From: an uncultured Pseudomonadota bacterium
GTDB taxonomy: Bacteria; Pseudomonadota; Alphaproteobacteria; RF32; CAG-239
Direction of reading: 5' to 3'
NCBI GenBank assembly: GCA_902763535.1
Contig: CACWSG010000001.1
Span: 51,957-115,956 of the forward strand
DNA length: 64,000 bases
Shown: piece after piece, positions 39,408 through 55,653 of the stretch
How positions within the stretch are numbered: position 1 is the stretch's first letter
How the letters are laid out: every line of letters starts with the position of its first letter
The notes under the pieces: generated by a model
Databases searched by the model: none
What the model saw: only the letters and a program-made list of their open reading frames with translations
Told to the model about the DNA's origin: nothing
Program-made: the position numbers and the translations under genes

Positions 39408-39482
39408 GGTCCCATCGTCTAATGGTTAGGACATCACCCTTTCACGGTGGTAATATGGGTTCGAATCCCGTTGGGATCACCA
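39408..39482 (+). tRNA. tRNA-Glu (anticodon TTC); integration site of the downstream island
   Basis: GGTCCCATCGTCTAATGGTTAGGACATCACCCTTTCACGGTGGTAATATGGGTTCGAATCCCGTTGGGATCACCA. Anticodon loop CT-TTC-AC. A Rho-independent terminator follows at 39483-39520. Confidence 0.9.
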
Positions 39483-40990
39483 ATCGCAACACCCTCGATT
39501 TTCGGGGGTGTTTTTTTGTTTAAAGAATCTATCAAATCAAAAGGTTTTCTAAGGTTATAAGAGATTTTCCTATCCTTCATTTGCAAGTTCGAAAGTAAAA
39601 GTTTCAAAATCGCTCTTTTGGTCTCTACTTTCGAACTTTTGAAAATTTGGTAGGCATTATTCCCCAATGAAAGTATTGTTGATATTGCGATAGAGAAGTT
39701 TTTATCAGCCTCGGTCAATAAAGCAGACTTTCCCTCAAGTTCGTATTGTTCTTGTTTAACGTCTTCATTCATATCCCGATATTCTTCGGGCGTAATATGA
39801 CCTTCAAGCAGTAATGACCGCAATCGTTTAATCTTGTCTTGGCAATTGTCATATTTCTGACGAATTGCTCGCACTTCCTTATTATGAGCCTCATTTTGTT
39901 TATTGATGATTTTTTCCATATCAGCCTTAAGATATGGCATAATTTCTTGTGGAACGTGCAAATTCTTTAACTCACCTTCTATTGCCTCTAATGCAACATT
40001 TTCATTAATTTGAGGGTTTTCACAATTGCCTTTGAAATGCGAACACTTCAAATAGATATACTCCTTTCCGCTTGGTTTTGTTTTTTTATAGCTGCTGATA
40101 GTACAGCCACATACGCCGCAAGTCATAAGCCCTCTGAAAATAAAAGGCTCTTCAGTCGCCTTAAACGGTATTTTTTCTTCTGGTTTACGACCGTGCATAA
40201 TATCTTGGCAAGTTTGAAACAATGCAGGAGCAATGAACGTTTCATATTGATGCTTAAATACATTCTCCCTGTATATCATTTCCCCTATGTAAAATTTGTT
40301 GTTCAAAATACGATGAACTGCACTGGTATTTAATGGTTTACCGTTGTATTTACTCGTCAAACCCCATTCTTTACATTGTTTTACCATATCTTTTAATGAA
40401 TATAAGCCTGTTGCATAGCGTTCAAACAGCTTTTGTATAATTGGCGCTCGTTCATTATCAACAATAACATCAGCTTTACCATCTGGTTTTCTAACATTAA
40501 AATATCCTAAAGGAGCTCTATACATACAAAAACCGTGTTCGGCTTGATGATTCATACCACTAACAACGTTATCTCGCAAAGAAAGAACATAGTTTTGTGC
40601 CATAACGACATTTAAGCCTAAAATCGTTAAATCACCAGCTTTTGAATTTTTATCAAGCACCAAATTCTCTTGCACTAAGTGAAGTTCTAATTGACCGCTC
40701 TTACGCATTTCATCAATCATTGTATAGTTTTTGAAGTTACGCATTAAGCGGTCAGTTTTCAAACAAACCAGAGCTATACCACCACGTTGTTTCTTACAAA
40801 AAGCCAATATCTCCATAAAGTGCTTGCGTTCACCACGAGTGGAACTTTCAACCAGTTCAGCATCTTTTATAATATTTAAGCCTTTTCGTTCGCAGTATTG
40901 CTTCAACACTTCTTGCTGATTTTGCAACGAGTAGCCCTCTTGCGATTGCATAGTAGTCGATACACGACGTAATAAAACAGCATTTTTCAT
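39434..40990 (-). CDS. Large serine recombinase (integrase)
   Basis: N-terminal resolvase catalytic domain (VLLRRVSTTMQSQEGYSLQNQ…, catalytic Ser in RVST). Recombinase domain, Cys-containing zinc-ribbon region (CGVCGCT…CSHFKGNC) and coiled-coil. The last ~16 codons are antisense tRNA-Glu sequence. Confidence 0.85.
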   Translation of the reverse strand: MKNAVLLRRVSTTMQSQEGYSLQNQQEVLKQYCERKGLNIIKDAELVESSTRGERKHFMEILAFCKKQRGGIALVCLKTDRLMRNFKNYTMIDEMRKSGQLELHLVQENLVLDKNSKAGDLTILGLNVVMAQNYVLSLRDNVVSGMNHQAEHGFCMYRAPLGYFNVRKPDGKADVIVDNERAPIIQKLFERYATGLYSLKDMVKQCKEWGLTSKYNGKPLNTSAVHRILNNKFYIGEMIYRENVFKHQYETFIAPALFQTCQDIMHGRKPEEKIPFKATEEPFIFRGLMTCGVCGCTISSYKKTKPSGKEYIYLKCSHFKGNCENPQINENVALEAIEGELKNLHVPQEIMPYLKADMEKIINKQNEAHNKEVRAIRQKYDNCQDKIKRLRSLLLEGHITPEEYRDMNEDVKQEQYELEGKSALLTEADKNFSIAISTILSLGNNAYQIFKSSKVETKRAILKLLLSNLQMKDRKISYNLRKPFDLIDSLNKKTPPKIEGVAIGDPNGIRTHITTVKG

Positions 40991-41353
40991 TACTAATTAT
41001 CCTTATTATTAAAAGTATCATATCATACAATTTTAGACAAAAACAAGCAAATTATTTAAGACTAAACATTTTTAATAATGATTAGTTTTCTAATAAAAAT
41101 CTTACCAAAAACCCTTAGTTACAAATAATTTCCCAACCAAAAACCTCTTTTACATAATTTCAATACAAGCCAATTGGTGGTTTGTCAGCAAAATGCCTGT
41201 AAGCATTTTTGTCCAAACAATGATAAATGAAAAAGTTGGAAATTGTAAAATCGTGGTATCCGAATGAAACATTGTCTGATGATGATGCTTCAAGAATATA
41301 TGAACGATTATTGCAACTTTTTCTACTTTTTTACAATGAGGACAATCTGACTA

Positions 41354-42184
41354 ATGAAAGAGAGGTTACTAATGAGTCAGAAAAAAAATAAAATTTATAA
41401 AGAAGCTGAAAATCAATTGAATGAAATGCAAAAGGCATTCATCGAATTTGATAAAAGCTATATTCTTCCCAGAAATCACTTGAATTCAGCCCTCATTGGT
41501 TGTTATCAAGCTTCAACGGAATGGGAGGATAAGTTCATAGAAGAATACTGTGAACAAAACAACATCAAATATATGAAGAAGAAACGCTACAAAAATATAG
41601 TGATGCTAGCTATGAATGTTAGCGATGACTGCGATGAAAGGACAAAAGCTCGTGTTAGAACTTATGTTCGTATCTTAAAAAAATTTAAGCAGCTAAATTA
41701 TGATGTTGAAACAGCAAAAGAGCAACTTGAAGAATTCGGTACTGACTATTTTGCTAATCCAAGAAAAAAGAAGGAAAAATCGGAAGAAACTTCAAAGCCG
41801 CAACAGCTTGAGTTTGATTTCGGAACTTCTTCAAAAAATACTTCGAATGAAGAAGACGATGATGATAGCGAAGCTGATGCAGAGGAAATAAGCGATGATG
41901 ATTCCGAAGAAGATAAAGACGAATGCGATTTTGCAGATGAAGATGATGATGAAAACTATGAAGGAAAAAATCGCTTTCGTGATTATCACATTCCAGCTTC
42001 TGTAAAACAAGACAAACAATCTTCTAAAACTTTTTCAGAAGAACTTATTGACCTTTGTAACAAGTATGACTTTGAGGATGAAAACTTTGTCCTTTGGATA
42101 TGTGAGGATAAAGTCCGAATGAGTACTGATAAAAAACTCATTAATCGCTTGGAAAAACAAAATTATGAGTTCGAAGACTTATAG
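41354..42184 (+). CDS. Hypothetical protein with poly-acidic low-complexity region
   Basis: 276 aa with a 60-aa D/E-rich segment (EEDDDDSEADAEEISDDDSEEDKDECDFADEDDDE). Confidence 0.45.
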   Translation: MKERLLMSQKKNKIYKEAENQLNEMQKAFIEFDKSYILPRNHLNSALIGCYQASTEWEDKFIEEYCEQNNIKYMKKKRYKNIVMLAMNVSDDCDERTKARVRTYVRILKKFKQLNYDVETAKEQLEEFGTDYFANPRKKKEKSEETSKPQQLEFDFGTSSKNTSNEEDDDDSEADAEEISDDDSEEDKDECDFADEDDDENYEGKNRFRDYHIPASVKQDKQSSKTFSEELIDLCNKYDFEDENFVLWICEDKVRMSTDKKLINRLEKQNYEFEDL

Positions 42185-42300
42185 TTTATCTTTTGATAAG
42201 GGGGTACAGCAGTATCCCCTTATTTGCAAAACGTTGTTCAACAACGTTTTTACATCACCCCAAAAACTGCACAAATGTATACAACCATATTTAGTCATTA

Positions 42301-43065
42301 ATGCAGTTTATATTAAGGACAACTACTATGACTAACTTCGCAGATAAATTCGAACATAACGCAGTATTACAGTTAAGGAAATTAAATAGAGCTATTGATT
42401 TATATTGCAAGGATATCTTTAGAAAAAATAAACTAATAAGATATGTAAGAAGCGATAATGGATACGGTATGATGCAGCCTATGGCTTTATATAACTTTTC
42501 AGAAATAGCATTTACTCACCTAGAGCCAATTATTGGTGTTGAAAATATTTCAATGTTTACTATAGCCGTTGATACTTTCAATTTTGGGAAAGACAATTGG
42601 GATTTCAATTATCCATTATTTCGTAAAGAAATCAAAAAAATACTAAAAGGTTATGACTACATTGCTAATGTGGCTTTAGATGAATTTCCAAGAGGACGTT
42701 ACTTTGATGAAGGGATATTAATGACACCGCATATACACGGCATATTTTTCAGACCGTTAACTCGTTGGGAAAAAGGTAAAATATCCATAAAAATAAAAAA
42801 ACATTTTCCAGAATATCGAATAAGACCTTTTGTTGTCAGAGAAAAGTTTGATTTAAAATCTGCAATACATTATTCTTTCAAGGCATTATATGGCGGTAAA
42901 ACCACTTATTCTGGTACGTGCGGAAAAAATATTGAAACACCATATAGGAACCTCTTTATAAATTTTTTGCACCTTAAAGCCCTCAAAATATACGATTGTG
43001 CTTTTGCTGGTGGTAAAGGCATTGAAGTGTTAAATAATATTATCAGCGATATTAAAACTAACTAA
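42301..43065 (+). CDS. HUH-superfamily replication initiator (Rep)-like protein
   Basis: HUH motif TPHIHGIFF and downstream Tyr motif IHYSFKALYGGK (YxxK). 254 aa. Confidence 0.5.
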   Translation: MQFILRTTTMTNFADKFEHNAVLQLRKLNRAIDLYCKDIFRKNKLIRYVRSDNGYGMMQPMALYNFSEIAFTHLEPIIGVENISMFTIAVDTFNFGKDNWDFNYPLFRKEIKKILKGYDYIANVALDEFPRGRYFDEGILMTPHIHGIFFRPLTRWEKGKISIKIKKHFPEYRIRPFVVREKFDLKSAIHYSFKALYGGKTTYSGTCGKNIETPYRNLFINFLHLKALKIYDCAFAGGKGIEVLNNIISDIKTN

Positions 43066-43612
43066 CACAACTTAAATAATTATAAACAGTCCTTCGTGAA
43101 ACATTAAATTGTTTGGCGATGGTGGTTATAGGGGTACGATTATTAACCAAGGCTTTTATTTCTTCGGCTTGTTCATTGGTTAGTTTACGTTGCCCACCTT
43201 TATATTTACCTTTGAGTTTAGCCAAAGCAATTCCCTCACGTTGACGCTCCAAGATTAAGTTGCGCTCAAGCTCTGCTACAGCTCCCAACATCGTCATCAT
43301 CATTTTTTGATACGGATCTTGTTTATCGGGGGCAAATATCAAATTTTCTTTATGAAATACAACTTTAGCTCCTTTATTGGTTATTTCTTCGACCAAGTTC
43401 AGCAAATCATTTGTGTTGCGTGCTAATCTATCCATCGAGTGGACATTAACCACATCACCGGCACGAATATTAAGTAACATAGCTTGAAGTTCTGGGCGGT
43501 TAGTGTTTTTACCACTGATTTTTTCGACATATTCCCTATCGCAAGCAACATTTAACAGTTGGCGCTCGGTATTCTGGTCGGTTGTGGAAACTCTCTTGTA
43601 ATTAAACAACAT
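43058..43612 (-). CDS. Small serine recombinase (resolvase/invertase family) with C-terminal HTH
   Basis: MLFNYKRVSTTDQNTERQ… (catalytic Ser). DRLARNTNDLLNLVEEITNKGAKVVF. C-terminal HTH IAKQFNVSRRTVYNYL. 184 aa. Confidence 0.85.
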   Translation of the reverse strand: MLFNYKRVSTTDQNTERQLLNVACDREYVEKISGKNTNRPELQAMLLNIRAGDVVNVHSMDRLARNTNDLLNLVEEITNKGAKVVFHKENLIFAPDKQDPYQKMMMTMLGAVAELERNLILERQREGIALAKLKGKYKGGQRKLTNEQAEEIKALVNNRTPITTIAKQFNVSRRTVYNYLSCVS

Positions 43613-43731
43613 TTTAAGCTCCTATATGTGAAATTTACATTTATAACTTTGATTTACAGGTGTGTAATTAATGCGGTTTTCGACTTTGTTTACACACTTT
43701 TAAGGCTGCGCAATCACGGTATACTTTATTT

Positions 43732-44253
43732 TTACACCGCCTCAGCCTTGACAACTATCGTGTCCTCAACTGTCAGGTCATAAATCCTTGGCATATTGCT
43801 CGAACGTAGAAATCGCAAACCGTCAGAATCATTTAAATAAATTCTGTCTGTGGTTATTCGGTCAATCACGCTCCAATGGTCGTGTAGACCTTGTATGCCT
43901 ATAATCACGGCTGTATTCGGCTGTTTTGTTAGTGTCGATATTTTTTTGATGGCTGTTGTCGTGCGAGTTTTATCGTTGAATGGCCTATAATGCGTTAACC
44001 TGATATTGTCCAATTGTGATTGAATAATACCAAGATAATCCTCAACTTGTTCAACTTCTGAGCCTTCTTTATGGACTGCGTTTAATTTACGGTGTTTATA
44101 TAAGTATGCAATTATTTCTTGAAACCAAAATTTTACGTATTTCTTTTTAAAATTCTCCAAACCTTCTGTCGATAACAATGTCGCATTAATTGAGCTATAC
44201 ACACCACAGAGATTGTCGAGATTGCCTTGCGAAAAGTAAATATTCTTCATCAA
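43732..44253 (-). CDS. Stand-alone C39-like (papain-fold, clan CA) peptidase-domain protein
   Basis: Q-x7-CG (QGNLDNLCGVYSSINA), His motif GLHDHWSVI and downstream Asp. Paralogous to 56398..56982. Confidence 0.5.
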   Translation of the reverse strand: MMKNIYFSQGNLDNLCGVYSSINATLLSTEGLENFKKKYVKFWFQEIIAYLYKHRKLNAVHKEGSEVEQVEDYLGIIQSQLDNIRLTHYRPFNDKTRTTTAIKKISTLTKQPNTAVIIGIQGLHDHWSVIDRITTDRIYLNDSDGLRFLRSSNMPRIYDLTVEDTIVVKAEAV

Positions 44254-44573
44254 TATTCATCTCCTCTCATTATGGTTAGCACTCTGTTGGTAACGCTCTC
44301 ATCGGATATGTCGGGACTGAGGCATAAGTAGTCTAGGTCGTAGTAATCAATCTTCCAGAAGTATGTTGCCCCTTTGAAGTCTATAGCCCCGAAGTCGTGT
44401 TCTTGATTAGGATCATTATTTGCAGTGAATTTATCAAAAGTGCGAACTCGGTTTAACAGCTCAGCACGGTCATTGTCGTTTAACTCGCAAACACCAACTG
44501 TCAACATAACTTTGCCACCAGTGAATGTCTTGCGAAGTTTGTCGTTCAATAGTCGTATTTTACCAACACTCAT
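44250..44573 (-). CDS. Small hypothetical protein with candidate double-glycine leader
   Basis: 107 aa, N-terminus MSVGKIRLLNDKLRKTFTGG-KVM…. The Gly-Gly sits at residues 19-20 with hydrophobics at -4, -12 and -15. Translationally coupled (ATGA overlap) to the C39-like gene. Confidence 0.4.
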   Translation of the reverse strand: MSVGKIRLLNDKLRKTFTGGKVMLTVGVCELNDNDRAELLNRVRTFDKFTANNDPNQEHDFGAIDFKGATYFWKIDYYDLDYLCLSPDISDESVTNRVLTIMRGDEY

Positions 44574-44894
44574 TTTTTACTCCTTTAAAATAAAAAAAGA
44601 GCCAAGGTATTTAACCAAGGCTCTCAAAATTTGCGGATTAAGGCAGATGGTATGTCCCACAAAACCTATTTCGACATTAGAATTGTATGACATACCACCT
44701 CACTTTCACACCGACAAAATTAAACCTTATCTGCTCTGGTGAAAAAGCAGATTATATAAGGCTTATGTGTCAGTGATTTTGTATTCGAAATAAACGAACC
44801 GATTCGTTTTTGAATACAACTAATTATAACACAAAAATAAAGGAAAATCAAGTACTTAATTGACAAAACATCATTTTTTGACGCATTTTTTAGT

Positions 44895-45551
44895 TTATTT
44901 CAAATGGTTTAGTACCTCTTTTTTATGTTTATTGAAATAACTGATTATTTCTTGAGCAAATTGTCTGAATTGTTTTATATCTTCATCGCTTATTGTATCG
45001 GAATCATTTATTGAAACAGTATGTTGACTATCATTATAAGTGTCACAATCACAATTTTTAACAGCTATTAATTTCGATGTTTCTTGTATAATCGCAAAAT
45101 CGTCATTGTCCTGATTATTGATTGAGCTAAAAACACCTAGCTGTTTGTTTTGCCAATACATCACAACAGAAAAATTAATTTCAAAATGTTTATTTATTTC
45201 ATAAGATGCTGTAAATAATGAATAATCGCTTATATCATTTGCTAAATCAAAACAGTTATCTAAATCTGTAATATAAATTATATTATGATTTTCAATATCT
45301 AAGTCATTTACCAGATCTTCCCAAACGGCTTCCCATATTTGACGACACATAATCCAGCCGTCCGTTTTAAACTTCTGCAAAAACACCTTAGCTTGATAAA
45401 AGTTTTGATATTCATCAAACGAAATTTTGCTAGGTACTTCGGTATTGTCGAACATAGCTAAAGCTTTTATCGTATTATCTTTGCAAACTTTTTTTAAATT
45501 TTCAGGTATTTGTATCATTTTTAACACTCCCAATATAAAATTTTGTTCCAC
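44895..45551 (-). CDS. Hypothetical protein (218 aa), acidic
   Basis: Long ORF, overlaps the upstream gene by 31 nt (operon). No recognisable motif. Confidence 0.4.
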   Translation of the reverse strand: MEQNFILGVLKMIQIPENLKKVCKDNTIKALAMFDNTEVPSKISFDEYQNFYQAKVFLQKFKTDGWIMCRQIWEAVWEDLVNDLDIENHNIIYITDLDNCFDLANDISDYSLFTASYEINKHFEINFSVVMYWQNKQLGVFSSINNQDNDDFAIIQETSKLIAVKNCDCDTYNDSQHTVSINDSDTISDEDIKQFRQFAQEIISYFNKHKKEVLNHLK

Positions 45552-46306
45552 AATGAAGACCTGTAACGTTTCATATCTTCATCTTCAACCAGTCCGTCTA
45601 GGTTCTGTTCCCATAATTGCATAACATCACACCAGAGTATATTTTTCCAAGATTCTTTTTTTTCTTTTTTTGCATCAATATCTTTTTGAATATTTTTAAT
45701 AGTGATAACGACGAAGGTCAGCTCTTTACCTTTGGCAATTTTCTTCATCTGTTCCTCATAAACGCTTAATTCATTACCATCAATTACGGCATCAAATTTT
45801 ACTTCAATACATAAAGCTCCGCTATTCCATATAATTGTATTATCAATACGTTTTCGCCTTTTTTTCTTATCTTTGACATTTTTAGTAAGAACTTCGCAAG
45901 CACAATAATAACCATCTTTGGGAAGTTCTTTATTTTGATTTAATAATTTAAAAATAGCCTGTAAAAATGCTTTGCAGCTTTGTTGATTTTCGAGTAAAAA
46001 ATTTGATAATGCTTTTGTAAATTGTGGTTCTTTCAAATTTAAATAGCGATATAAAGGCTTATAACGGAATGAATGATGCGCTGTATAATTACCTAAAAAT
46101 GGAAAATCACTTAATAGATCTTCATATGTTTGATAACCGATTTTAGCATACTGCTTTGCTATATAATCGTGATAGTCTTGCAAAAACGATTTGACTTTTA
46201 AGTGATCCCCATAAAATGCTTGAATATATGGCAGACTTTGATGATATACATCATTACAATATACTTCGGATAATTGTGAAAAATATTTTTCTTTACTCAT
46301 TATCAT
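45521..46306 (-). CDS. Hypothetical protein with PD-(D/E)xK-like nuclease motif
   Basis: …IDNTIIWNSGALCIEVKFD… (D…E-V-K), embedded in predicted beta strands. 261 aa. Confidence 0.4.
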   Translation of the reverse strand: MIMSKEKYFSQLSEVYCNDVYHQSLPYIQAFYGDHLKVKSFLQDYHDYIAKQYAKIGYQTYEDLLSDFPFLGNYTAHHSFRYKPLYRYLNLKEPQFTKALSNFLLENQQSCKAFLQAIFKLLNQNKELPKDGYYCACEVLTKNVKDKKKRRKRIDNTIIWNSGALCIEVKFDAVIDGNELSVYEEQMKKIAKGKELTFVVITIKNIQKDIDAKKEKKESWKNILWCDVMQLWEQNLDGLVEDEDMKRYRSSLWNKILYWEC

Positions 46307-46330
46307 ACCAATTCTCCGAATATATCAATT

Positions 46331-46600
46331 AAAAAACCACCTTTGAATAAGGTGGTCGGAGAGTTCGTAAATCATATTAGGTAAAATGATCCTTTTAGCC
46401 TTTAGAAAGTAGATTCTTGGACATACGCTAAAAGCTCCCCGACCATTGTCGGGGATAGCTGTTGCTTCAAAAATATTGCAACTGACGATGTTATCCGACA
46501 CCGTACCTAATAAGAGCTTACGACGGCTCCGCACCTTATATAAGGTACTAAACATAGGTTGCCCTATGCCTAATAAAAACATTAAGCCTACATAGGTTAA
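46331..46600. repeat. Copy B of the ~250-bp intergenic repeat family, located inside the island
   Basis: See copy A at 14835-15100. Hairpin ccacctttgaataaggtgg, then ggagagtt and the gctccccgaccattgtcgggg core. Confidence 0.75.
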
Positions 46601-46697
46601 ATTACAATTAAAATCACTTTATTTTCAGAAAATTATTTTGCTTTTTTGGTAAAGCATAATATTATGAAAAAAAATACTAACAGTAGGATTAAAGATA

Positions 46698-47360
46698 ATG
46701 GATTTAGACAAACACGCAACCCAATATTTGGATATTATGAATAAACAGGCTCAGGAATTATCTTGTTATGAACAGCAATTTGATAATGCTGATTCTCATA
46801 TGCTGCAACACGTAATTGACTATTCGAAAATGGCTATCAAATCACTTTTTTTATTAAATGGAACGGCAGCCATTTCTGTATTTACTTTATTTACATCTTC
46901 ATCACTAAATATTCAAAAAGTTTTTCAGCCATTACTTGATGCGGTTACAATATTTTCTTGGGGTGCTGTTATTTCAGTTATATGTATTTTTTTAGCCTAT
47001 GCGGCGCAAAAATTTTATCAAGATGAGTGTGCTTGTATAGGAAGAGAGAAAATATTATATATCAAATTAAGACAATCTGAAGAAAAACGGATATTTTTTG
47101 CAAAGGAAAAAGTATTGAATAAAGAAATACCAGTTGAAAAAGATATAGAAGCCTTAGAAAATGAGGCAGAGGATACTAAAAAACAGAGGGATTTAGAAGA
47201 AAAAAAGGAAAAAAGATATGGCAAACTTGGAGATATTTTTACAGGTATCGCTATAATAGGAGTCATCTGTTCATTGTGTTTATTTATATTCGGCGTCTAT
47301 AAAGTAAAAAACGAATTTGTTCAATATACTAAGGACACAATTACTGAACAAAATAAGTAA
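46698..47360 (+). CDS. Membrane protein with two TM helices and charged coiled-coil tail
   Basis: TMs AISVFTLFTSS and GAVISVICIFLAYAA, a K/E-rich helical segment, and a C-terminal TM IAIIGVICSLCLFIFGV. Confidence 0.45.
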   Translation: MDLDKHATQYLDIMNKQAQELSCYEQQFDNADSHMLQHVIDYSKMAIKSLFLLNGTAAISVFTLFTSSSLNIQKVFQPLLDAVTIFSWGAVISVICIFLAYAAQKFYQDECACIGREKILYIKLRQSEEKRIFFAKEKVLNKEIPVEKDIEALENEAEDTKKQRDLEEKKEKRYGKLGDIFTGIAIIGVICSLCLFIFGVYKVKNEFVQYTKDTITEQNK

Positions 47361-47409
47361 AAGTAATTTTGTATAAGTGATTACCAATTTCGAAGAAATC
47401 ATCTGTATA

Positions 47410-49899
47410 TTACGATATTTCATTCTTATTTTGATTTTTTGCTTCTTTTTCTATGGCTTTTTCTACTTTTTCAAATCCACTACAACCATCTTTAATAGCT
47501 TCATTCCAGTTAAAATATGCAACCCCTATATTTACCTTATTCCAAATATCTGTTAGATAATCTCTGAAAAGAATAGATTTACGGTATCTATCTTCAATTT
47601 TAAATGACTGAATTAGAGGAAATATTTCATCTCGAGTTATTGTATCCAAAATAGGCGTATCAATCGAAACCGCATCTAAATATGAAAACTCACCTATCCA
47701 CTTATATAAATGATATACACCTATACTTGTAACTCTAAATCCTTCTGGAATATCTCCACATAACACACCTGTTTTTCTTTCAAATTCTACCCTTCCAACA
47801 GATTCTATCAATTTTTTATTAGTAAGTCTTCTAATAGAATATTCAATTTGAGGAATTGTGTAACCATATTTTTGCATTTCGGTTATAATGTCTATAAATT
47901 TAACAAAACTATCGGTATCTTTTGTTGAATATTTACTTTCGAGATATGCGACAATTAGCGATGACAAAAAATGCTCTTTAATATCAGGAGATGAAATCTC
48001 AAATAAATTCATTGCTAGTGAAGTATCTTCATTAAAATAAGAGTAATCTCCTAAAATAGCTGCTTTTGAAAATTCGTGCAAAGGAATTAAATAATCATCT
48101 TCTTTACTAAAGGATATGATTTTATCACTATCTACATTAGTATTACTTATAAATTTTGCAATAAAATCCATTACTAATCGAACATTTCCACCTGTAATGT
48201 TTGATAATATTTCTCTTATTTCTTTATTATTTTTTATAGAAAATAAAAGGGATTTAATAAATACGACTATATCGCTCAAATCTAAACTAATATTTTCTAA
48301 AGGATGTATCTTTGTATTGCCTTGTGCTATTTTTAACGCAAATTCAAGACGTTTAGCCACAACTGTTTCTATCCTTGGTGGAAGTATAGTAAATACACGT
48401 TGAGTATATCCAGACAAAGAGCGCCCTCTCATTTTTGATTGATAAAAGGTTTCTGGGCGTAACGCAATAAAAGTCATCGCTTTCCATCCAGAAGCAAGTT
48501 CTTGAGCTATAACAAAAGCTTCATCCTGTATGTCTGTAGTCCTTTGATCCGCATTATCAATAGTAATGATAATTTGTTTTTTATGAGCTTTGGCTATATG
48601 CTCTATTGCTTTACACAAATGGCTAGATTTATCTGAGGTTAATTTATCAAGATATGAGATAAGTTTTTCATTATATAATTTTGGATTCTGCTGCAATAAA
48701 TCTTTATAAATGCCATTTTCAAATCTCTTTATTTCAGAATGATAAATACCTTTTACAAAATTTGAAGAATAAATATCTATTTTGTGATTGTCCAAAAGTT
48801 GCTTTTCTATATCTAGCAATATAAAAGATTTTAAATCATTCGATAAAGTACCACTATCCCCTAAATCAATATATAAATACAGTGATTTTTCAAACTCTTC
48901 TTTAGCATTTAAATATTTTAAACTTTTAAGAAAGCTTGTCTTTCCAACTCCTACATCTCCTATTACTACAATAGGTCTCTTTGATAAAGCCTCAGCGTAT
49001 ATCTTATCAGAGAGAAGACCTTGTTTTTTATTTTTTTGCATTAAGCATTCTATATTCGTATCGCTATCCTGCGGAAACAAGTGAGCATAACGTTTGGATA
49101 AAATATCTTTACTAATAAGGGCATCTTGAGATAAGGCTCCACTTTGGCAATAGCATTCCTGAAAAAATTCTTCTTCAATTTCTGGAGAAGTTATCAAATC
49201 TTGTAGTAATAATTCAGATAAAATTTCTAAACTTTTTTGATTGTCATTTTTATATCTTATATCTCGATAATTTAGAATATATTGAGATAGTTTACTAGGT
49301 AAAAATTTTCTTTCACTTGCTATAAAAAAGTCATATAGATTTCTATCTTTAATTCCGTAAATTGAAAGGTATTGCCATACAAGCTGGAAATTTGTTAATA
49401 AATCATCTTTGTTTCTTATAATAAATGCATCCCCATCAAGAGGAGGAATACCATCTCGTCGTGATGCTAAAAAGGCTATAATTTGGTATGAATTTATAAT
49501 AACTGCAAACTCGACACCTCGTTTAGAACAATAATCAAATACTTGATTAACGGCATCTTTAGCGGCAGAACTTGTTTTTATAATTGATTGTATAGAACAG
49601 ATATATTTCTCTCTTCCGTTTGATGGAAAATCAAATTGTATACTATCTTTTTTAGCTTCAACAATACAACATTTAGGATGTCCTAGTTCATAATCGGTAT
49701 AGTCTCCATTGTGATATTTTTCAGTTTCAATATTTTCTTTATTCCAGCCTAGACAATATACCAAAAAATCATCTATAAACTGAAACCTAGTATCTTCTTC
49801 TGTCCAATTCCAAGAAGCTTTAGTGCTTTCTTCGACTAAGGCTTTTAGGTTCTCTAGACCTATCTTCATATCGTTCACATTACTTATAAAATTTGCCAC
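47410..49899 (-). CDS. Fusion protein: N-terminal HsdR-N/Mrr-like PD-(D/E)xK nuclease domain plus P-loop NTPase (STAND/AAA-like), with a long C-terminal region
   Basis: Nuclease motif …DYTDYELGHPKCCIVEAKK…. Walker A IVVIGDVGVGKTSFLK. Walker B-like QIIITIDNADQ. 829 aa and extremely AT-rich. Directly downstream, on the same strand, of the m5C methyltransferase. Confidence 0.55.
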   Translation of the reverse strand: MANFISNVNDMKIGLENLKALVEESTKASWNWTEEDTRFQFIDDFLVYCLGWNKENIETEKYHNGDYTDYELGHPKCCIVEAKKDSIQFDFPSNGREKYICSIQSIIKTSSAAKDAVNQVFDYCSKRGVEFAVIINSYQIIAFLASRRDGIPPLDGDAFIIRNKDDLLTNFQLVWQYLSIYGIKDRNLYDFFIASERKFLPSKLSQYILNYRDIRYKNDNQKSLEILSELLLQDLITSPEIEEEFFQECYCQSGALSQDALISKDILSKRYAHLFPQDSDTNIECLMQKNKKQGLLSDKIYAEALSKRPIVVIGDVGVGKTSFLKSLKYLNAKEEFEKSLYLYIDLGDSGTLSNDLKSFILLDIEKQLLDNHKIDIYSSNFVKGIYHSEIKRFENGIYKDLLQQNPKLYNEKLISYLDKLTSDKSSHLCKAIEHIAKAHKKQIIITIDNADQRTTDIQDEAFVIAQELASGWKAMTFIALRPETFYQSKMRGRSLSGYTQRVFTILPPRIETVVAKRLEFALKIAQGNTKIHPLENISLDLSDIVVFIKSLLFSIKNNKEIREILSNITGGNVRLVMDFIAKFISNTNVDSDKIISFSKEDDYLIPLHEFSKAAILGDYSYFNEDTSLAMNLFEISSPDIKEHFLSSLIVAYLESKYSTKDTDSFVKFIDIITEMQKYGYTIPQIEYSIRRLTNKKLIESVGRVEFERKTGVLCGDIPEGFRVTSIGVYHLYKWIGEFSYLDAVSIDTPILDTITRDEIFPLIQSFKIEDRYRKSILFRDYLTDIWNKVNIGVAYFNWNEAIKDGCSGFEKVEKAIEKEAKNQNKNEIS

Positions 49900-50056
49900 T
49901 TATTGTCTCCATATAAAACCTAACTGCAAAATATGACATACAAATTAACATAAACATCTAAACAATCAAGAATAAAAACAATTCGCATCATTTTGACGTA
50001 GCTTGGAAATTGGACAGATTAACAATTGCACAAGTACTAAATTTTATACCTGAGTG

Positions 50057-51289
50057 TTACTCTGCAGCCATTTCTAGTTGCAGTCCATTTGTCATTTTTT
50101 CATTTAAACAATCCAACATTTCAATTAAGCAACACCCTATATGATAACTTAAATTAACCGGAACAGCATTACCTATTTGTTTATACTGTGATGACATTGT
50201 TCCTTGAAATTTCCAATTATCAGGAAATGATTGAATTCTTGCATATTCACGAATGGTAAGTGGTCTCGTTTCACTTGGATGACAGCGTTCAGTTTGCTTT
50301 TGAGCTGGTGCGCAAGTCAACGTTAAACTCGGTTCATCCCAAGATAAACGTCTTGCCATACCAGTTTTGCCACCAGATAAATGAAAACTGCCTTTCATAT
50401 ATTCTTTTTGAACATCAATCGGTAAATCTCGCCAATACCCCCCCTCTGGAACCAATGACAATATTTCAGCTTTACGTTTAGGATAGCTTTGACCTTCTGA
50501 TTTAGGACAATCTTTTAACGCAGCTCTTAGTGAAACTGTATAATTTTTCTCTGTTGGAAAGATAAAAGGAATATTCAAATCATTACGAATTGCAATAATT
50601 ATTAATCTTTCTCTTTTTTGCGGCACATCTAAATACTGTGCTCTCAAAACCTTATATTGCACATTATAACCAATTTCTTTCAAGGCATTAACCATTGTTT
50701 TAAGGGTTCTGCCATTATCGTGTTTCAACAATCCTTTAACATTTTCACCAACAGCAATTTTGGGCATTGTTTCTTTAACGCAGCGAGCAAATTCAAAAAA
50801 CAATGTTCCTCTGGTATCTTCAAATCCCATACTTTTACCAGCATAACTGAAAGCTTGACAAGGAAATCCTGCTTGAACTATATCGACTTTACCTTTCCAA
50901 GGAGAAAAATCTACATTATGGACATCTTCGTGAATTATGTTAGTTCCTTTAGGAAAATTATGTTGCAAAGTTGCGACACAATCTTTATCTATTTCGTTTA
51001 GTAAGATGTGTCGAATACCTGCATTTTCAAACCCAAGAGCTGTTCCTCCAGCTCCTGCAAATAGTTCTATCGCTGTATAAGGAGACTTAAGTTTGGATTC
51101 CAACACTTTGAACTCTTCATCGGATTTATTATTTAATTTATCCAATAAGGCAAAAACTTCGTCATCATTGAACATACGATGATTTTTATCAGAACGTTCT
51201 GCCTTTATTAATCCTTTTTTTTCCCAACGTCTAATTGTATCAATAGATAAATTAAGTTTTTTACTTACTTCGTGAATAGATAACCACAT
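50057..51289 (-). CDS. DNA (cytosine-5)-methyltransferase with N-terminal MerR-like HTH
   Basis: Motif I ELFAGAGGTALGF, IV GFPCQAFSYAGK, VI ENVKGLL, VIII QKRERLIIIA, X QIGNAVPV. N-terminus MWLSIHEVSKKLNLSIDTIRRWEKKGLI is an HTH. Confidence 0.9.
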   Translation of the reverse strand: MWLSIHEVSKKLNLSIDTIRRWEKKGLIKAERSDKNHRMFNDDEVFALLDKLNNKSDEEFKVLESKLKSPYTAIELFAGAGGTALGFENAGIRHILLNEIDKDCVATLQHNFPKGTNIIHEDVHNVDFSPWKGKVDIVQAGFPCQAFSYAGKSMGFEDTRGTLFFEFARCVKETMPKIAVGENVKGLLKHDNGRTLKTMVNALKEIGYNVQYKVLRAQYLDVPQKRERLIIIAIRNDLNIPFIFPTEKNYTVSLRAALKDCPKSEGQSYPKRKAEILSLVPEGGYWRDLPIDVQKEYMKGSFHLSGGKTGMARRLSWDEPSLTLTCAPAQKQTERCHPSETRPLTIREYARIQSFPDNWKFQGTMSSQYKQIGNAVPVNLSYHIGCCLIEMLDCLNEKMTNGLQLEMAAE

Positions 51290-51376
51290 TATTAATCTCC
51301 TTAATTAACTGAATACAATATAAAATAACCCCTGCATATATGCAAGGGTTATTTTTAAGATATTAAATCAATATAA

Positions 51377-52087
51377 TTAATTAACTGATTCTTCTATTTC
51401 TTGAGCTAAACTGTCTATTGCATCTTCAATAATAGCTGTACCATCAATCTCATTCGCAACTTCGGCAATATTATTAATCAATGCTTCATAAAAGTCTTCA
51501 TCACCTGTCAATCTATACCAGAATTCTTTACCTGCATAGACGGGATTAGACTTATTTATGGTTTTATACATTGTTGATAAATCTTCATTACTACCATAAA
51601 AGACCCCAACAACACAGTCAACATCAGGATTGAAATCTCTTAAACCATTTGTTCGTGCTAAATTTCGGATTGCTTGGAAATGGTTTAATATTGTTGTAAT
51701 ATCATCCTTATTTATAGTATTTGGACCAGCCTTAATCTGGCAATATTTGTGTCTTCCATCAACTTGATCTGTGAATTCAATATCAATACCAGATGTTGTT
51801 GAGGCAAAACCATTTAAAACGTCTTTGCAAAAAGATTGCATCTGAGTACCAAAAATAGTATTTATCGATGTTCCTAAAACTCGAGGATAAATCAAAGCCT
51901 TTGCAATGTTTTTACTATCAGAATTGCCAAAAGCAAAATTTGCTAAATATTTCTGTAAAAAAGGATTAGGATTGAATTCCTTTAAGTGTTTAGCTTCTTC
52001 AGTTTTCTTTTTATGATTCTCAACAATATTGTCTCTAAAAAATTGTTTGGCTTTTTGCAGTATAAGTTGTTTTTCCTCTGGGGTCAT
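51377..52087 (-). CDS. Putative type II restriction endonuclease, cognate of the adjacent m5C MTase
   Basis: 236 aa from internal Met with GGAGA RBS. Candidate PD…(D/E)xK: GIDIEFTDQVDGRHKYCQIK. Position and orientation are typical of an R-M pair. Confidence 0.45.
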   Translation of the reverse strand: MTPEEKQLILQKAKQFFRDNIVENHKKKTEEAKHLKEFNPNPFLQKYLANFAFGNSDSKNIAKALIYPRVLGTSINTIFGTQMQSFCKDVLNGFASTTSGIDIEFTDQVDGRHKYCQIKAGPNTINKDDITTILNHFQAIRNLARTNGLRDFNPDVDCVVGVFYGSNEDLSTMYKTINKSNPVYAGKEFWYRLTGDEDFYEALINNIAEVANEIDGTAIIEDAIDSLAQEIEESVN

Positions 52088-52246
52088 TCTTATTCTCCGT
52101 ATAACAAACACGAGTAACATTTTATCTTAATTACCCAGAAAAGCAAGTTATAATTGGCTTTATTCTACATAATTAAACAGCAAAAAACCAAATTAATCTC
52201 TATATAATTGTAAAATGTATTTAACAAAATCCATAAATAAGAAATA

Positions 52247-52927
52247 TTATTTGTAGCTATTCAAGTCTATTTTATATTTTGAACAAAAATCGTAGATATT
52301 TTTAACTGTATAACACTTAATTCCTGTTTTTAAAGCAAATTCTTTTGCTCTATCATCATAACCATTCTTTACAAAATATGTTAAAATATAAGGATGCACA
52401 ATTGTTTTGTTTTCATCTGAAATATTCTTTATTACCCCTCCAACAAATTGTTTCATAGAGTTAAGACCTATACATTTTTTATCAAAACACTTGACTTGTG
52501 AATAAACGTCTATAATACCTAATATATCATCCTCCAATTTTCCTTTAATATCAATTGTATTAGCATCTTCTTGAGAATTATCAGCAACTTCTTCTACTTT
52601 AATTTTTTCACTTTTATTTAAAATATCACAACAGAGTTTTGCATATGATTTTGGACTTAATAGGTTTAATGCCTTACAAAATTCCATATATTCTTTTTTT
52701 CCTTTTATAACTACAAAATTTTCTTTATCATCAAACTCTACTATTTCATCGTCCTGTTCTCTAAAGAAATTTTCTAATATTCCTAAATGGTTATTAATCT
52801 CATCTTCTGAAATACTATCATCTATTTCTTGAACTACATTTGTAATTATCTTAGCAAAAGATCCAGATGTAGGATTACTACAAGCCATTTTATATATTTC
52901 GTTAAATGAAGGAAATTTGTTAACCAT
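52247..52927 (-). CDS. Hypothetical protein (226 aa) co-transcribed with the ParB-like gene
   Basis: Start codon abuts the upstream gene's stop (52927/52928). No recognisable domain. Several Cys pairs. Confidence 0.4.
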   Translation of the reverse strand: MVNKFPSFNEIYKMACSNPTSGSFAKIITNVVQEIDDSISEDEINNHLGILENFFREQDDEIVEFDDKENFVVIKGKKEYMEFCKALNLLSPKSYAKLCCDILNKSEKIKVEEVADNSQEDANTIDIKGKLEDDILGIIDVYSQVKCFDKKCIGLNSMKQFVGGVIKNISDENKTIVHPYILTYFVKNGYDDRAKEFALKTGIKCYTVKNIYDFCSKYKIDLNSYK

Positions 52928-54064
52928 TTAATTATCCTTAAGTTTTTTAATTGCCATTATCTTTTTTTGCACAAAATCCACCATATCTTCTACCAATTTA
53001 AAATCCTCATCACTAAACGATTGGATCGTTATAAAAGGCATAATATCAAACTCTGTTTTTAAATTTTCAATAGCCATTTTCCAATTATTATTGGGTTTTG
53101 AATTTTTAATTTCAAACTCTATCTCTTCTAATGTTTTATCTGTAGATAAAAAACTTTGATAAAACTTTGTATTTTCTTCTCTTAATAAATTAGATAATTT
53201 TCTCATACTTTTAGCTTCTGATAATTTTGGTGAATTATTTTCTCCTGTTGTTTCATTATACTTTCCTTTCATCCAAGAAATAAGCAATTCCAAATTATCT
53301 TTATTTAAACACTCAAAAGGATCATCTTGTATATCTAACCATTTTCTAATATTAGGACTTTTCATTGCTTCTTCAAAATAACTGTAATTATCAGGCGTAA
53401 ACGAAACATCTGTATCACCCTCAAGACTATTTGCCATTTCAAATAATTTCAGTGATCTTTTAGATTGCTTAACGGTTGCTTTTGTTATTCCCAACATATT
53501 ACTTATCTCTTCGTCAGAAATTTTATCTTTTGTTAATTTATTAATTAAAAGTGCTTTCTGATATGCTCCCCAAGATTTAACTCCTGATATATGCCTTATT
53601 CCAGGAATCAGCATATTATACGAAGCTTCTTTATCTTTATTGTCAACTAACAAAACATCTATGTTTTCCAAATCATTTTTCTCTTCTTTTGATAATGTAA
53701 TTTTTCCAACATTTTCCAAGTTTATTATAGATTTCAAAGCCGCAATTCTTCTATTACCTTCTATAACTACATATTTATTTTCAAATCCATTTATAGGTCT
53801 TACAACTACTTTATCTATAGGAAGAAAACCTACCTCAAGTATATTATCTCTTAAAGAAGATACTTCAAAAGATGGTAACAACATACGTTTTAACGTTTCT
53901 TCTTGAACTTTATCTTCTATTATTCTGTTTTCAGGAACTACGTAATTTTCCATATTAATCTCTAAAAAACGAGGATTATTAGGATCTAAATATAGATCAT
54001 TTAAGGCAATTGTTTTTTGTTTGAATTCATCTCTAGAAAAAGTTGTCATAATTACGCCTTCCAT
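52928..54064 (-). CDS. ParB/Srx-fold N-terminal domain protein with central HTH
   Basis: ParB box VVIEGNRRIAALKSI. HTH ISNMLGITKATVKQSKRSL. Long helical C-terminal region. 378 aa. No parA partner nearby. Confidence 0.55.
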   Translation of the reverse strand: MEGVIMTTFSRDEFKQKTIALNDLYLDPNNPRFLEINMENYVVPENRIIEDKVQEETLKRMLLPSFEVSSLRDNILEVGFLPIDKVVVRPINGFENKYVVIEGNRRIAALKSIINLENVGKITLSKEEKNDLENIDVLLVDNKDKEASYNMLIPGIRHISGVKSWGAYQKALLINKLTKDKISDEEISNMLGITKATVKQSKRSLKLFEMANSLEGDTDVSFTPDNYSYFEEAMKSPNIRKWLDIQDDPFECLNKDNLELLISWMKGKYNETTGENNSPKLSEAKSMRKLSNLLREENTKFYQSFLSTDKTLEEIEFEIKNSKPNNNWKMAIENLKTEFDIMPFITIQSFSDEDFKLVEDMVDFVQKKIMAIKKLKDN

Positions 54065-54446
54065 ATTTATTATTCAATACTGAGTAGAATAAAGCTCTTA
54101 CTGTACAAAAGCAAGCAAAATATATAAAAAATAAGAATAGCTTCAAATGAACATCAAAACTAAAAGAAACATTCAAAACGCAGGAAGTCGAAGGCAAATT
54201 GTTTCAAAAATGCAACTATTATCTAAAAATTTTGAAACTATTATTTACCTTGGATTTTTTTACCATACAATGCGGTTGTGCTGTTTTATGCATATTTTAT
54301 CATTAAAATGCTCGATTCGCATTGTATGAATAGAATATCGACAGTAAATAACATTTTTCATCGTAAATTATCTTTATGTAAGTTGTAACCATCTGATTTT
54401 ACACATTAAAATATGCTGCAAAAAAACATTTTCAGGCGCTTTTTAC

Positions 54447-54475
54447 TTGCTTATACTAGGAAAATATGGTATAAT
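54447..54475 (+). promoter_or_regulatory. Near-consensus sigma70 promoter (TTGCTT-17-TATAAT) driving a ~150-nt leader or small RNA
   Basis: -35 at 54447-54452, spacer of 17, -10 TATAAT at 54470-54475. Confidence 0.55.
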
Positions 54476-54595
54476 AAAATTGTATTTAGGCGGTAACCGT
54501 AGGTTAATTAAAAATGCTTAAATATAGGTTTGATGATAAAATCCTTCCGTGTGAACTAAGGGTCTAGCCAAACGTTAAGAACTCAACCCACATTC

Positions 54596-54676
54596 ACCTC
54601 AACAGGTGAAATGTGGATTTTGTTTTTTAACGAGCATCTGCATTTCACCAAAGATATGAAAGGAAACTGAAATGCA
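54596..54676 (+). promoter_or_regulatory. Leader with intrinsic terminator plus alternative, mutually exclusive pairings that sequester the start codon of the 54672 gene
   Basis: A ccacattcacc / A' ggtgaaatgtgg + T7 (terminator). B ctgcatttcacc can pair with A' or with B' tgaaatgcag. B' contains the ATG at 54672. Confidence 0.45.
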
Positions 54677-55427
54677 GACTTTTACAATTATAAAAAAGTA
54701 TATTGCTAAGCAAATTAAGCTTAATGGCAATTCTTGTAAAAATATTATACTAAGCACTAGGCAAATAAAAAAGGGTTATGAAAATCTTACTAATGCAGAG
54801 GTGTTTTATGATCTTATGACTATGGAAAATGCAGGAATTATTAAAATAAAAGTAAAAGCACGTCCAAGAAAGATATATAAAAATTTAAGGAGTAGCATAA
54901 TATTTTGCCAAAGAATTTGTCGCTATATTATAGATGTTTTACAACCTGAATATTTCTGTGTAAATGAACAAATTAATAATGATTGTACCAAAGAAAAGTG
55001 GGCTATTCAGGCTTCAGTTGATATTGATAACTGGAAATTCATTGTAAAATTAAATGGCATCGATGAAGATTTTGAATTCAATTTTAAACCTGCAGCAAAT
55101 GGATTGAAAACAAAATTGATGAGTTTTTGGGAAAAGGCTCAAAATAATCCAAATACTGAAATTGATTGCTATAGTGACGACTTGTTTAAAAGACCACACG
55201 ATTCCATAAAAGCATTTTTTAGACAATTTTGCCCCGAATTGCAGGATTATCTGATTAGTATTTCACGATCTGGAAACACCGCTCGTTTTATGCCTGTCGT
55301 ATCACCAGATATTTTAAGAGCTAAGAATATAGGCCGACTGATATTTAACAAGGGAGAAAATGAAAAAAAGTATAAATGTTCTTGGGATGAGAGTGGAACT
55401 TTTTTAGGCTGGAAGAGAATTGGCTAG
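54672..55427 (+). CDS. Hypothetical protein (251 aa)
   Basis: Long ORF behind the structured leader. No recognisable motif. Confidence 0.4.
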   Translation: MQTFTIIKKYIAKQIKLNGNSCKNIILSTRQIKKGYENLTNAEVFYDLMTMENAGIIKIKVKARPRKIYKNLRSSIIFCQRICRYIIDVLQPEYFCVNEQINNDCTKEKWAIQASVDIDNWKFIVKLNGIDEDFEFNFKPAANGLKTKLMSFWEKAQNNPNTEIDCYSDDLFKRPHDSIKAFFRQFCPELQDYLISISRSGNTARFMPVVSPDILRAKNIGRLIFNKGENEKKYKCSWDESGTFLGWKRIG

Positions 55428-55653
55428 ACTATGGTTATTGTCAAGGAATTTTCGAATATTAAAATAAGTCTGCATAGTTTCCGTATAGTACTCCTCTGAG
55501 AGTAAAAGTTCGAGATTCGTTGCGTTATTGTCACCAATTGCAACACTATTGATTTTTGAGGGAATTTTCCTGTTTAATTAATAAAAATAACATCTTGACT
55601 TCAAGATATTATTGTGCAACTTTTTGAATAGCTCAATATCAAGGAGAATTTTT

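Follow-up and report, generated by a model that had tools for sequence, protein, structure and literature searches.

We analysed a 64,000-nucleotide (nt) stretch of contig CACWSG010000001.1 from an uncultured Pseudomonadota bacterium (the window, to whose positions all coordinates refer unless a related locus is named), focusing on the region around a gene for a 251-amino-acid (aa) protein in a defence island. The gene is preceded by a promoter, a structured leader RNA that ends in an intrinsic terminator, and a hairpin that buries its start codon; it is followed by a conserved block in the 3' untranslated region (3' UTR). The features are listed below, with the coding sequence abbreviated as CDS and the open reading frame as ORF.

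54447-54475, plus strand: promoter, read from the sequence, with -35 TTGCTT (54447-54452), a 17-nt spacer, TGn (TGg, 54467-54469) and -10 TATAAT (54470-54475)
54482-54628, plus strand: leader, a predicted terminated small RNA of ~147 nt that begins near G54482 and reaches position 54628, where the U-tract ends, drawn from folding and lineage comparison
54482-54525 and 54527-54569, plus strand: parts of the leader according to the folds, a 5' stem-loop (inner hairpin 54494-54506) and a middle domain, with the terminator after them
54588-54628, plus strand: intrinsic terminator, with 5' arm A CCACAUUCACCU (54588-54599), loop CAAC, 3' arm B AGGUGAAAUGUGG (54604-54616) and tail AUUUUGUUUUUU (54617-54628)
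54605-54649, plus strand: alternative helix B:A', GGUGAAAUGUGGAU (54605-54618) with AUCUGCAUUUCACC (54636-54649)
54637-54678, plus strand: start-codon-occluding hairpin, A' (54637-54649) with C (54662-54663 and 54668-54678), -13.6 kcal/mol
54672-55427, plus strand: 251-aa ORF, with a predicted N-terminal winged helix and a remainder of unmatched fold
55457-55538, plus strand: conserved 3'-UTR block, ~96% identical to that of locus L004, against 55-80% for the CDS

Promoter, leader RNA and competing helices

Analysis of the promoter region revealed a perfect -10 hexamer with a TG at 54467-54468 upstream of it, giving an extended -10 promoter. A sequence-only reading of this DNA had described a near-consensus promoter, TTGCTT-17-TATAAT; the hexamers and spacer are indeed present, but the -35 hexamer agrees with the consensus at only three of six positions, which is why a simple consensus scan missed the promoter. 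Its position and hexamers are kept in the related loci L003, L004 and L014, with the form TTGCTA-17-TGcTATAAT in L004 and L014. Promoter-like hexamers are as such common in the region, 30 being found against 26.4 expected from shuffled sequence.

The leader of ~150 nt proposed in the sequence-only reading corresponds to a conserved stretch of 147 nt between the predicted start at G54482 and position 54628. The folding energy of the 209-nt leader is -54.4 kcal/mol (z = -4.1), a stability that no sequence in a set of 200 shuffles reached. The earlier statement that it contains no recognisable aptamer class agrees with Rfam 15, which assigned no family to the leader RNA at the gathering score or at E ≤ 10; its best matches were at chance level (E at least 0.45, far under the gathering scores), and a scan of the whole window returned only three tRNAs. 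Neither tandem repeats (Tandem Repeats Finder, minimum score 30, 54100-54750) nor a direct-repeat family inside the leader RNA was detected, and a covariance model of this RNA, run against the window and eight loci, recovered neither another copy nor a distant relative.

The terminator stem A:B consists of 12 base pairs (bp) and one bulged A, with a stability of -16.0 kcal/mol and a pair probability of 0.999, and the tail AUUUUGUUUUUU reads U4-G-U6. Thus, a stable G+C-containing hairpin is directly followed by a U-tract, as in intrinsic (Rho-independent) terminators. The first description of this terminator, as an 11-bp stem followed by T7, has to be replaced by the figures above; because of the single bulge, a simple scan missed it.

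Downstream of the terminator, the start hairpin is formed by 11 bp between 54637-54647 and 54668-54678, extended by 2 bp between 54648-54649 and 54662-54663. The AUG (54672-54674) lies inside the stem; when the read-through transcript is treated as a Boltzmann ensemble, this codon is free of pairing with a probability of 0.002 or less, in agreement with the earlier claim that a second hairpin buries this start codon. The Shine-Dalgarno (SD) sequence AAGGA (54660-54664) is partly located in the loop. The complementarity that had been noticed between the 3' arm of the terminator and the 5' arm of this hairpin proved to be extensive: B:A' comprises 14 contiguous pairs (12 Watson-Crick and two G.U), and its duplex energy of -20.2 kcal/mol, compared with a shuffle mean of -6.4 (sd 1.8), was reached by none of 2000 shuffles. 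The predicted OFF state, with A:B and A':C formed, has an energy of -54.4 kcal/mol, and the best structure in which B pairs only downstream has -51.0 kcal/mol, a gap of 3.4 in the window; the corresponding gap is ~7 kcal/mol in the more distant loci L012, L017 and L018. In the minimum-energy fold of the transcript that ends before B, A is paired with GUGAA/GGGU of the middle domain.

A further strand directed against the start codon was found behind the gene. The 3'-UTR segment 55465-55483 (UAAGUCUGCAUAGUUUCCG) is complementary to the SD sequence and AUG (AGGAAACUGAAAUGCAGACUUU), with a duplex energy of -23.3 kcal/mol in the window (1 of 1000 shuffles as good) and -24.0 kcal/mol in L004 (0 of 1000). 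By analogy with hok mRNA, this element may act as a fold-back lock on the same gene. Neither this third anti-start element nor the defence-island context had been part of the sequence-only reading.

The terminator itself carries start-like sequence. Its 3' arm (54604-54670 region) reads AGGUGAAAUG, an SD-like sequence followed by AUG, and this AUG opens a 19-codon upstream ORF (uORF) whose stop UGA (54668-54670) ends 1 nt ahead of the main AUG. In the L004 type the U-tract is one U shorter, which places the uORF in frame with the main ORF and accounts for the 270-aa gene calls P0020 and P0022; in L014 the uORF is out of frame, so it does not encode a conserved peptide. The sequence UCACCUC, identical to the 3' end of 16S rRNA, is present in the 5' arm and loop of the terminator (window 54594-54600; L018 2913-2919), and the 3' arm is SD-like in the terminators of the window and L018 alike, so SD/anti-SD-like sequence may be the source of part of the strand mimicry.

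Candidate leader peptides were rejected: the 8-codon ORF 54533-54559, the 17-codon ORF 54515-54568 and the 19-codon uORF 54611-54670 are not maintained in frame, or are absent, in L004, L014 or other clades. On the minus strand, a hydrophobic 52-aa ORF (54599-54757), antisense to the terminator and the start of the gene, is interrupted by an in-frame stop in L014 and differs at its C-terminus in L004, and is therefore probably spurious.

Conservation and recurrence of the layout, and the encoded protein

Conservation was assessed in three lineages, the window, L004 and L014 (L014/L015), whose proteins are ~61% identical (by BLASTP, 61% between the window and L004). L003 was rejected as independent evidence because it is a recombinant. 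It is a mosaic in which segment 5800-6240 (window 54460-54900), with the RNA and codons 1-82, is of the window type and the upstream region and the rest of the CDS are of the L004 type, indicating recombination inside the module. The contigs of close relatives keep the 1.3-kb module (window ~54233-55539) although the divergently transcribed neighbour differs, being ParB-like here and AAA_14/DUF4143 elsewhere.

Comparison of the window with L004 revealed a nucleotide identity of 72-80% upstream of the promoter, 86-100% at 54440-54735 (with 100% at 54513-54587) and 55-80% in the rest of the CDS. Synonymous changes in the conserved CDS codons are ordinary in number, so the flat profile of the RNA reflects constraint and not recent transfer. 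Only seven of 147 RNA columns vary across the three lineages, and none of the changes breaks a helix: they are a compensatory C-G to U-A pair (54498/54502), the loop of that hairpin, one unpaired base, two terminator-loop bases and one U-tract indel. Within the terminator, accordingly, the differences are confined to the loop bases of the hairpin and the U-tract indel. The arms A, B, A' and C are invariant except at 54636 (5' end of A') and 54668 (stem end of C). Position 54636 is A in the window and L004 and G in L014, where a U.G pair with 54618 is still possible; since 54636 and 54668 are both changed in L014, the 11-bp stem is kept. The remaining downstream variation gathers in the spacer 54631-54636 and in the loop of the second hairpin. 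By this comparison, the leader RNA is under purifying selection, and its conservation greatly exceeds that of the flanking sequence and of the CDS.

Distant homologues of the 251-aa gene (27-41% protein identity) carry unrelated upstream RNAs, while the promoter-RNA-terminator layout is kept in four of six subfamilies (homologues with it are 31-41% identical in protein). In L012, L016 and L017, a promoter TTGACA-17/18-TATAAT or TATACT precedes an RNA of ~153 nt whose stems covary; a terminator, which covaries as well, separates this RNA from the gene. In L013 an RNA of ~110 nt ends in a hairpin and U8. In L018, a promoter TTGACT-17-(TGn)TTTAAT is followed by an RNA of ~85 nt and a terminator, after which the SD sequence is buried in a hairpin of 11 bp. 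The promoters of L012, L016, L017 and L018 are analogous consensus promoters in the position that the promoter of the window occupies. The RNA ahead of the terminator differs wholly between subfamilies in sequence and length (~35 to 110 nt before the 5' arm); the covariance model of the window RNA had no match in L008-L013, and alignment with L012 and L013 showed no similarity past the promoter and the first ~10 nt.

The exchange of three strands recurs in L018. There, the strand behind the terminator, CUGUUUCCUUU, pairs either with the SD strand AAAGGAGACAG or with the 3' arm of the terminator, GAGGAGAUAGUU (3 of 2000 shuffles as good). L018 re-creates the topology of A:B, B:A' and A':SD independently and from different sequence. 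Complementarity of the B:A' type is weaker in the L012 clade (7, 24 and 103 of 2000 shuffles, with 7 for L012 and 24 for L017). That the three-strand layout turns up again in unrelated sequence is the strongest argument for regarding the alternative pairing as part of the design rather than as coincidental.

In several family members an intact RNA accompanies a gene that has been frameshifted, truncated or fused (a broken gene beside an intact RNA in L014, L017 and L018); such frequent damage fits a costly gene. In L014 (3190-3200, CCGAAAAAATC) and L018 (3180-3192, TCTCAAAAAGTT), the frameshift occurs at the same codon (~aa 63-66) in a run of A, equivalent to ~54862-54875 of the window, and one extra A or a -1 slip restores the ORF. 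Its presence in two distant lineages could reflect a mutational hot spot, phase variation or programmed slippage.

The 251-aa product is very rare, with three 90% clusters among 5.8 billion proteins and 11 relatives among 1.84 billion representatives, and the element occurs in one genome, the metagenome-assembled genome RUG10672, among 185,579 species representatives. Searches of plasmids and phages by protein or DNA, and of viral contigs, returned no copy, as did a pattern scan of metagenomes. The protein has no family in Pfam, PADLOC, PHROG or NCBIfam and no sequence match in PDB, and Pfam, PADLOC and NCBIfam assign none of its relatives to the ToxN/AbiQ, CptN or TenpN families. A first AlphaFold2 model was poor (predicted local distance difference test, pLDDT, 40); a second, built on 13 sequences, reached a pLDDT of 83.7 and predicted an N-terminal winged helix. 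Foldseek searches of PDB and BFVD returned nothing beyond weak matches to winged helix-turn-helix (wHTH) proteins of the MarR, HxlR or ROK type (E at least 4e-3), with no match to the rest of the fold. The wHTH region is the most diverged part between lineages with identical RNA (9 of 25 codons identical in codons 26-50). In P0012, a 195-aa protein encoded outside the window, a NucS_C-like PD-(D/E)xK nuclease domain replaces the N-terminal two-thirds and is fused to the C-terminal domain of the family (aa 160-247 of the window protein), a hint that this domain may work with nucleases.

Regulatory interpretation and relation to known systems

The reading that we tentatively favour, giving it slightly less than an even chance, is that a cis-acting, multi-lock leader RNA keeps a rare and probably costly defence-island gene silent. 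Structure prediction, conservation and recurrence support the predicted locks, and a coupled release, in which B would trap A', also appears well supported. We infer transcription start and stop, read-through, switching and a harmful protein. A double lock, combining a transcription stop with a hidden start codon, is a design typical of tightly controlled harmful genes.

In the proposed mechanism, the strong extended -10 promoter would fire constitutively, and most transcripts would stop at A:B and accumulate as the structured RNA of ~147 nt. In the minority that read through, A' would pair with C, so that translation would be blocked as well, and the conserved 3'-UTR segment folding back on the SD sequence and AUG would form a third lock. 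B mimics C; if the terminator stem were unformed or opened, B could capture A' and free the start codon, and read-through and translational activation would thereby be coupled. The trigger would probably be macromolecular: the cognate protein, a factor of host or phage origin, or the loss of arm A through RNA processing. Since the RNA ahead of the terminator is not conserved between subfamilies, it is unlikely to contain a metabolite aptamer.

Several observations weigh against this silencing model. With only three close lineages, informative covariation is absent from the critical arms. At equilibrium the OFF state dominates (>99%, AUG paired). A' is transcribed after the U-tract, so B:A' cannot itself prevent termination, and something must first keep A off B; the sole candidate antiterminator, GUGAA/GGGU (54551-54555 and 54560-54563) with ACCC/UUCAC (54586-54589 and 54593-54597), was no better than chance (258 of 2000 shuffles). 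Moreover, the best predicted structure with B:A' weakly re-pairs the SD sequence and AUG with the middle domain (54526-54534 and 54542-54546), so the predicted ON state is not a clean one. The earlier proposal that the two OFF structures can be exchanged for an ON structure is therefore supported for the three-strand design, which recurs in L018, and not for relief of termination by B:A'. L013 lacks B:A' complementarity, L008 and L009-L011 lack a terminator (they nevertheless occlude the SD sequence), and the 3'-UTR fold-back is confined to the window clade, no equivalent being found in the other clades. Finally, the unpaired linkers are almost wholly invariant, beyond the need of a simple attenuator, which hints at an additional function in trans or in a ribonucleoprotein and suggests a macromolecular partner.

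Comparison with known systems showed that the module belongs to none of the type III toxin-antitoxin, AbiF/RCd22 or hok families. Its layout appears closest to that of RCd22-abiF of Clostridioides difficile, and its translational gating resembles that of hok mRNA. RCd22 is described (PMC12373285) with a sigma-70-type promoter, a noncoding RNA (ncRNA) of ~100-130 nt and a Rho-independent terminator, followed by abiF without a promoter of its own; the short transcript is dominant and read-through rare, the start lies 168 nt upstream of the ATG, and the context is one of mobile elements and defence. The two share the order of promoter, ncRNA and terminator, the lack of a promoter before the gene and the defence context, the predicted start being ~190 nt upstream of the ATG here. 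However, the window RNA lacks the abiF motif (no match to RF03085 at the gathering score or E ≤ 10) and the protein lacks an Abi_2/HEPN domain, and the features given for RCd22 in the consulted section of PMC12373285 include neither a start-codon hairpin nor terminator-arm mimicry nor a 3'-UTR fold-back.

Type III antitoxin RNAs are described as tandem repeats processed by an endoribonuclease toxin (PMC8860590). The window module is like toxIN, cptIN and tenpIN in its order of promoter, RNA, terminator and gene (seen also in L012, L016, L017, L013 and L018), its association with defence and its subfamily-specific RNA. The terminator sets the stoichiometry in those systems, and we propose a similar role here. 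Unlike them, the window RNA has no repeats, and its protein is unrelated to their toxins.

In hok mRNA, an anti-SD/anti-start strand (tac/ucb/dcb/fbi; PMC9841398) sequesters the start or is itself trapped by another strand, and a 5'-3' fold-back provides a further lock, a logic used for toxic genes (PMC9841398). The window has a predicted counterpart for each of these elements, as A' can pair with C or B and the 3'-UTR segment 55465-55483 with the SD sequence and AUG; the sequestered start, the exchangeable strand and the fold-back are predicted from folding and shuffle tests. The differences are that the product is a 251-aa wHTH protein and not a small hydrophobic peptide, that no antisense RNA was found in the 64-kb window or at the gene's own start region, and that the role of trapping strand falls to an upstream intrinsic terminator, through its 3' arm. 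Activation by processing is conjectural here.

Attenuators built on a terminator and an antiterminator, and dual riboswitch platforms, use mutually exclusive helices to decide termination, and a downstream sequestrator controls ribosome access. The window RNA differs from them in having no conserved sensor or aptamer, no in-frame conserved leader peptide and no significant antiterminator, and in exchanging strands downstream of the U-tract. The architecture of a riboswitch or attenuator had been suggested in the sequence-only reading. A selected unit of promoter, leader, terminator and hairpin with a recurring layout is indeed present, while a metabolite riboswitch is unlikely and the sensor part is not conserved between subfamilies.

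The main rival of the silencing model, and a possible complement that could coexist with locks in cis, is that the terminated RNA is an antitoxin or partner, as in type III toxin-antitoxin systems and AbiF/RCd22, which binds, neutralises or regulates the 251-aa protein, with the terminator setting the ratio of RNA to protein. We consider it rather unlikely but worth serious weight. The order of promoter, ncRNA, terminator and promoterless protein gene matches toxIN and RCd22-abiF, the setting is a defence island, and the RNA is specific to the subfamily while the layout is kept, as expected of co-evolving partners; the invariant unpaired linkers suggest sequence-specific contacts, and frameshifted or truncated genes are still accompanied by an intact RNA (L014, L017 and L018). 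However, the RNA has no tandem repeats, no abiF motif and no ToxI match, and the protein is not a ToxN/AbiQ, CptN, TenpN or Abi_2 protein. Its only recognisable domain is a winged helix, usually a DNA-binding fold, and it is in the wHTH region that lineages sharing an identical RNA have diverged most. An unlikely alternative is a constitutive damper that lacks a regulated switch, combined with a separate function of the 147-nt RNA in trans through binding of a host protein or pairing with a genomic or phage target. The thermodynamic dominance of the OFF state and the lack of a significant antiterminator agree with a damper, and the conservation of the RNA body beyond the need of a pure attenuator agrees with a second function. 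Yet no complementary target above chance was detected in the 64-kb window (the longest match, 13 nt, is within the shuffle range), the complementarity of the RNA body to its own start region was not significant (143 of 1000 shuffles), and a damper alone leaves unexplained the highly non-random B:A' helix and its recurrence in unrelated sequence.

A metabolite riboswitch of a new class, with an expression platform combining terminator and sequestrator, would account for the structured and highly conserved leader, for mutually exclusive helices with a small energy gap between OFF and ON, and for a gene that has no separate promoter. It seems highly improbable, as no Rfam aptamer was recovered even at E ≤ 10, the RNA ahead of the terminator changes completely from one subfamily of the gene to another, the element is exceptionally rare (one genome in 185,579 species representatives) and the downstream gene is not metabolic. 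Functionless chance structures in AT-rich intergenic DNA could be suspected from the tiny family and from promoter-like hexamers that are as common as in shuffles (30 against 26.4), but the comparative data make this explanation very unlikely, to the point of being barely credible: it is opposed by the conservation profile with its compensatory or loop-only substitutions, by the shuffle tests on the fold, the B:A' helix and the 3'-UTR element, and by the recurrence of the layout in four subfamilies.

Beyond the silencing model, we raise the doubtful and more speculative idea that the 147-nt RNA and the 251-aa winged-helix protein constitute an undescribed addiction or abortive-infection module of defence islands. 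It would be type III-like, with a non-repetitive, subfamily-specific RNA, and its mRNA would be gated in the manner of hok by three anti-start strands and a start-mimicking terminator arm. If the silencing model is true, the RNA and the protein represent two families, both unannotated, that travel as a pair along the margin of variable defence cargo in rumen proteobacteria. The module would then merge the upstream terminated ncRNA of type III toxin-antitoxin systems and AbiF with start gating by hok-like strand exchange, in a form that is, as far as we are aware, undescribed. It would be a compact example of antitermination coupled to translational activation through a start-mimicking terminator arm, and would point to a new candidate effector of toxicity or defence. 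Should the RNA be no more than a damper, it is an ordinary, though elaborate, 5' UTR.

Upstream region and defence island

The conserved module extends upstream of the promoter into one further feature:

54197-54446, no strand assigned: conserved upstream part of the module, ~250 bp, with a left-edge motif (54204-54222) and an imperfect palindrome (54235-54274 / 54318-54357)

Homology with L003, L004 and L014 begins at ~54233 despite the different divergent neighbour gene. The left-edge motif TCAAAAATGCAACTATTAT is common to L013 (5597-5625), where it overlaps a strong promoter-like site on the minus strand. The long imperfect palindrome is kept in three lineages, with one compensatory pair; it may serve the winged-helix protein as an operator, or the divergent defence operon as a promoter.

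The island itself (39408-54064) begins with a tRNA gene (39408-39479), into which the end of a large serine recombinase ORF (39434-40990) extends. Its variable cargo comprises a resolvase, a nuclease of the PDDEXK_4 family, an AAA protein of 829 aa, a restriction-modification pair of C5 methylase and EcoO109I endonuclease, a 226-aa protein and the ParB-like PDC-M38A protein. L003 shares the serine recombinase and has a different cargo, and in other lineages the neighbours of the module are AAA_14/DUF4143, Fic, Eco57I, a Schlafen-like helicase and a reverse transcriptase.

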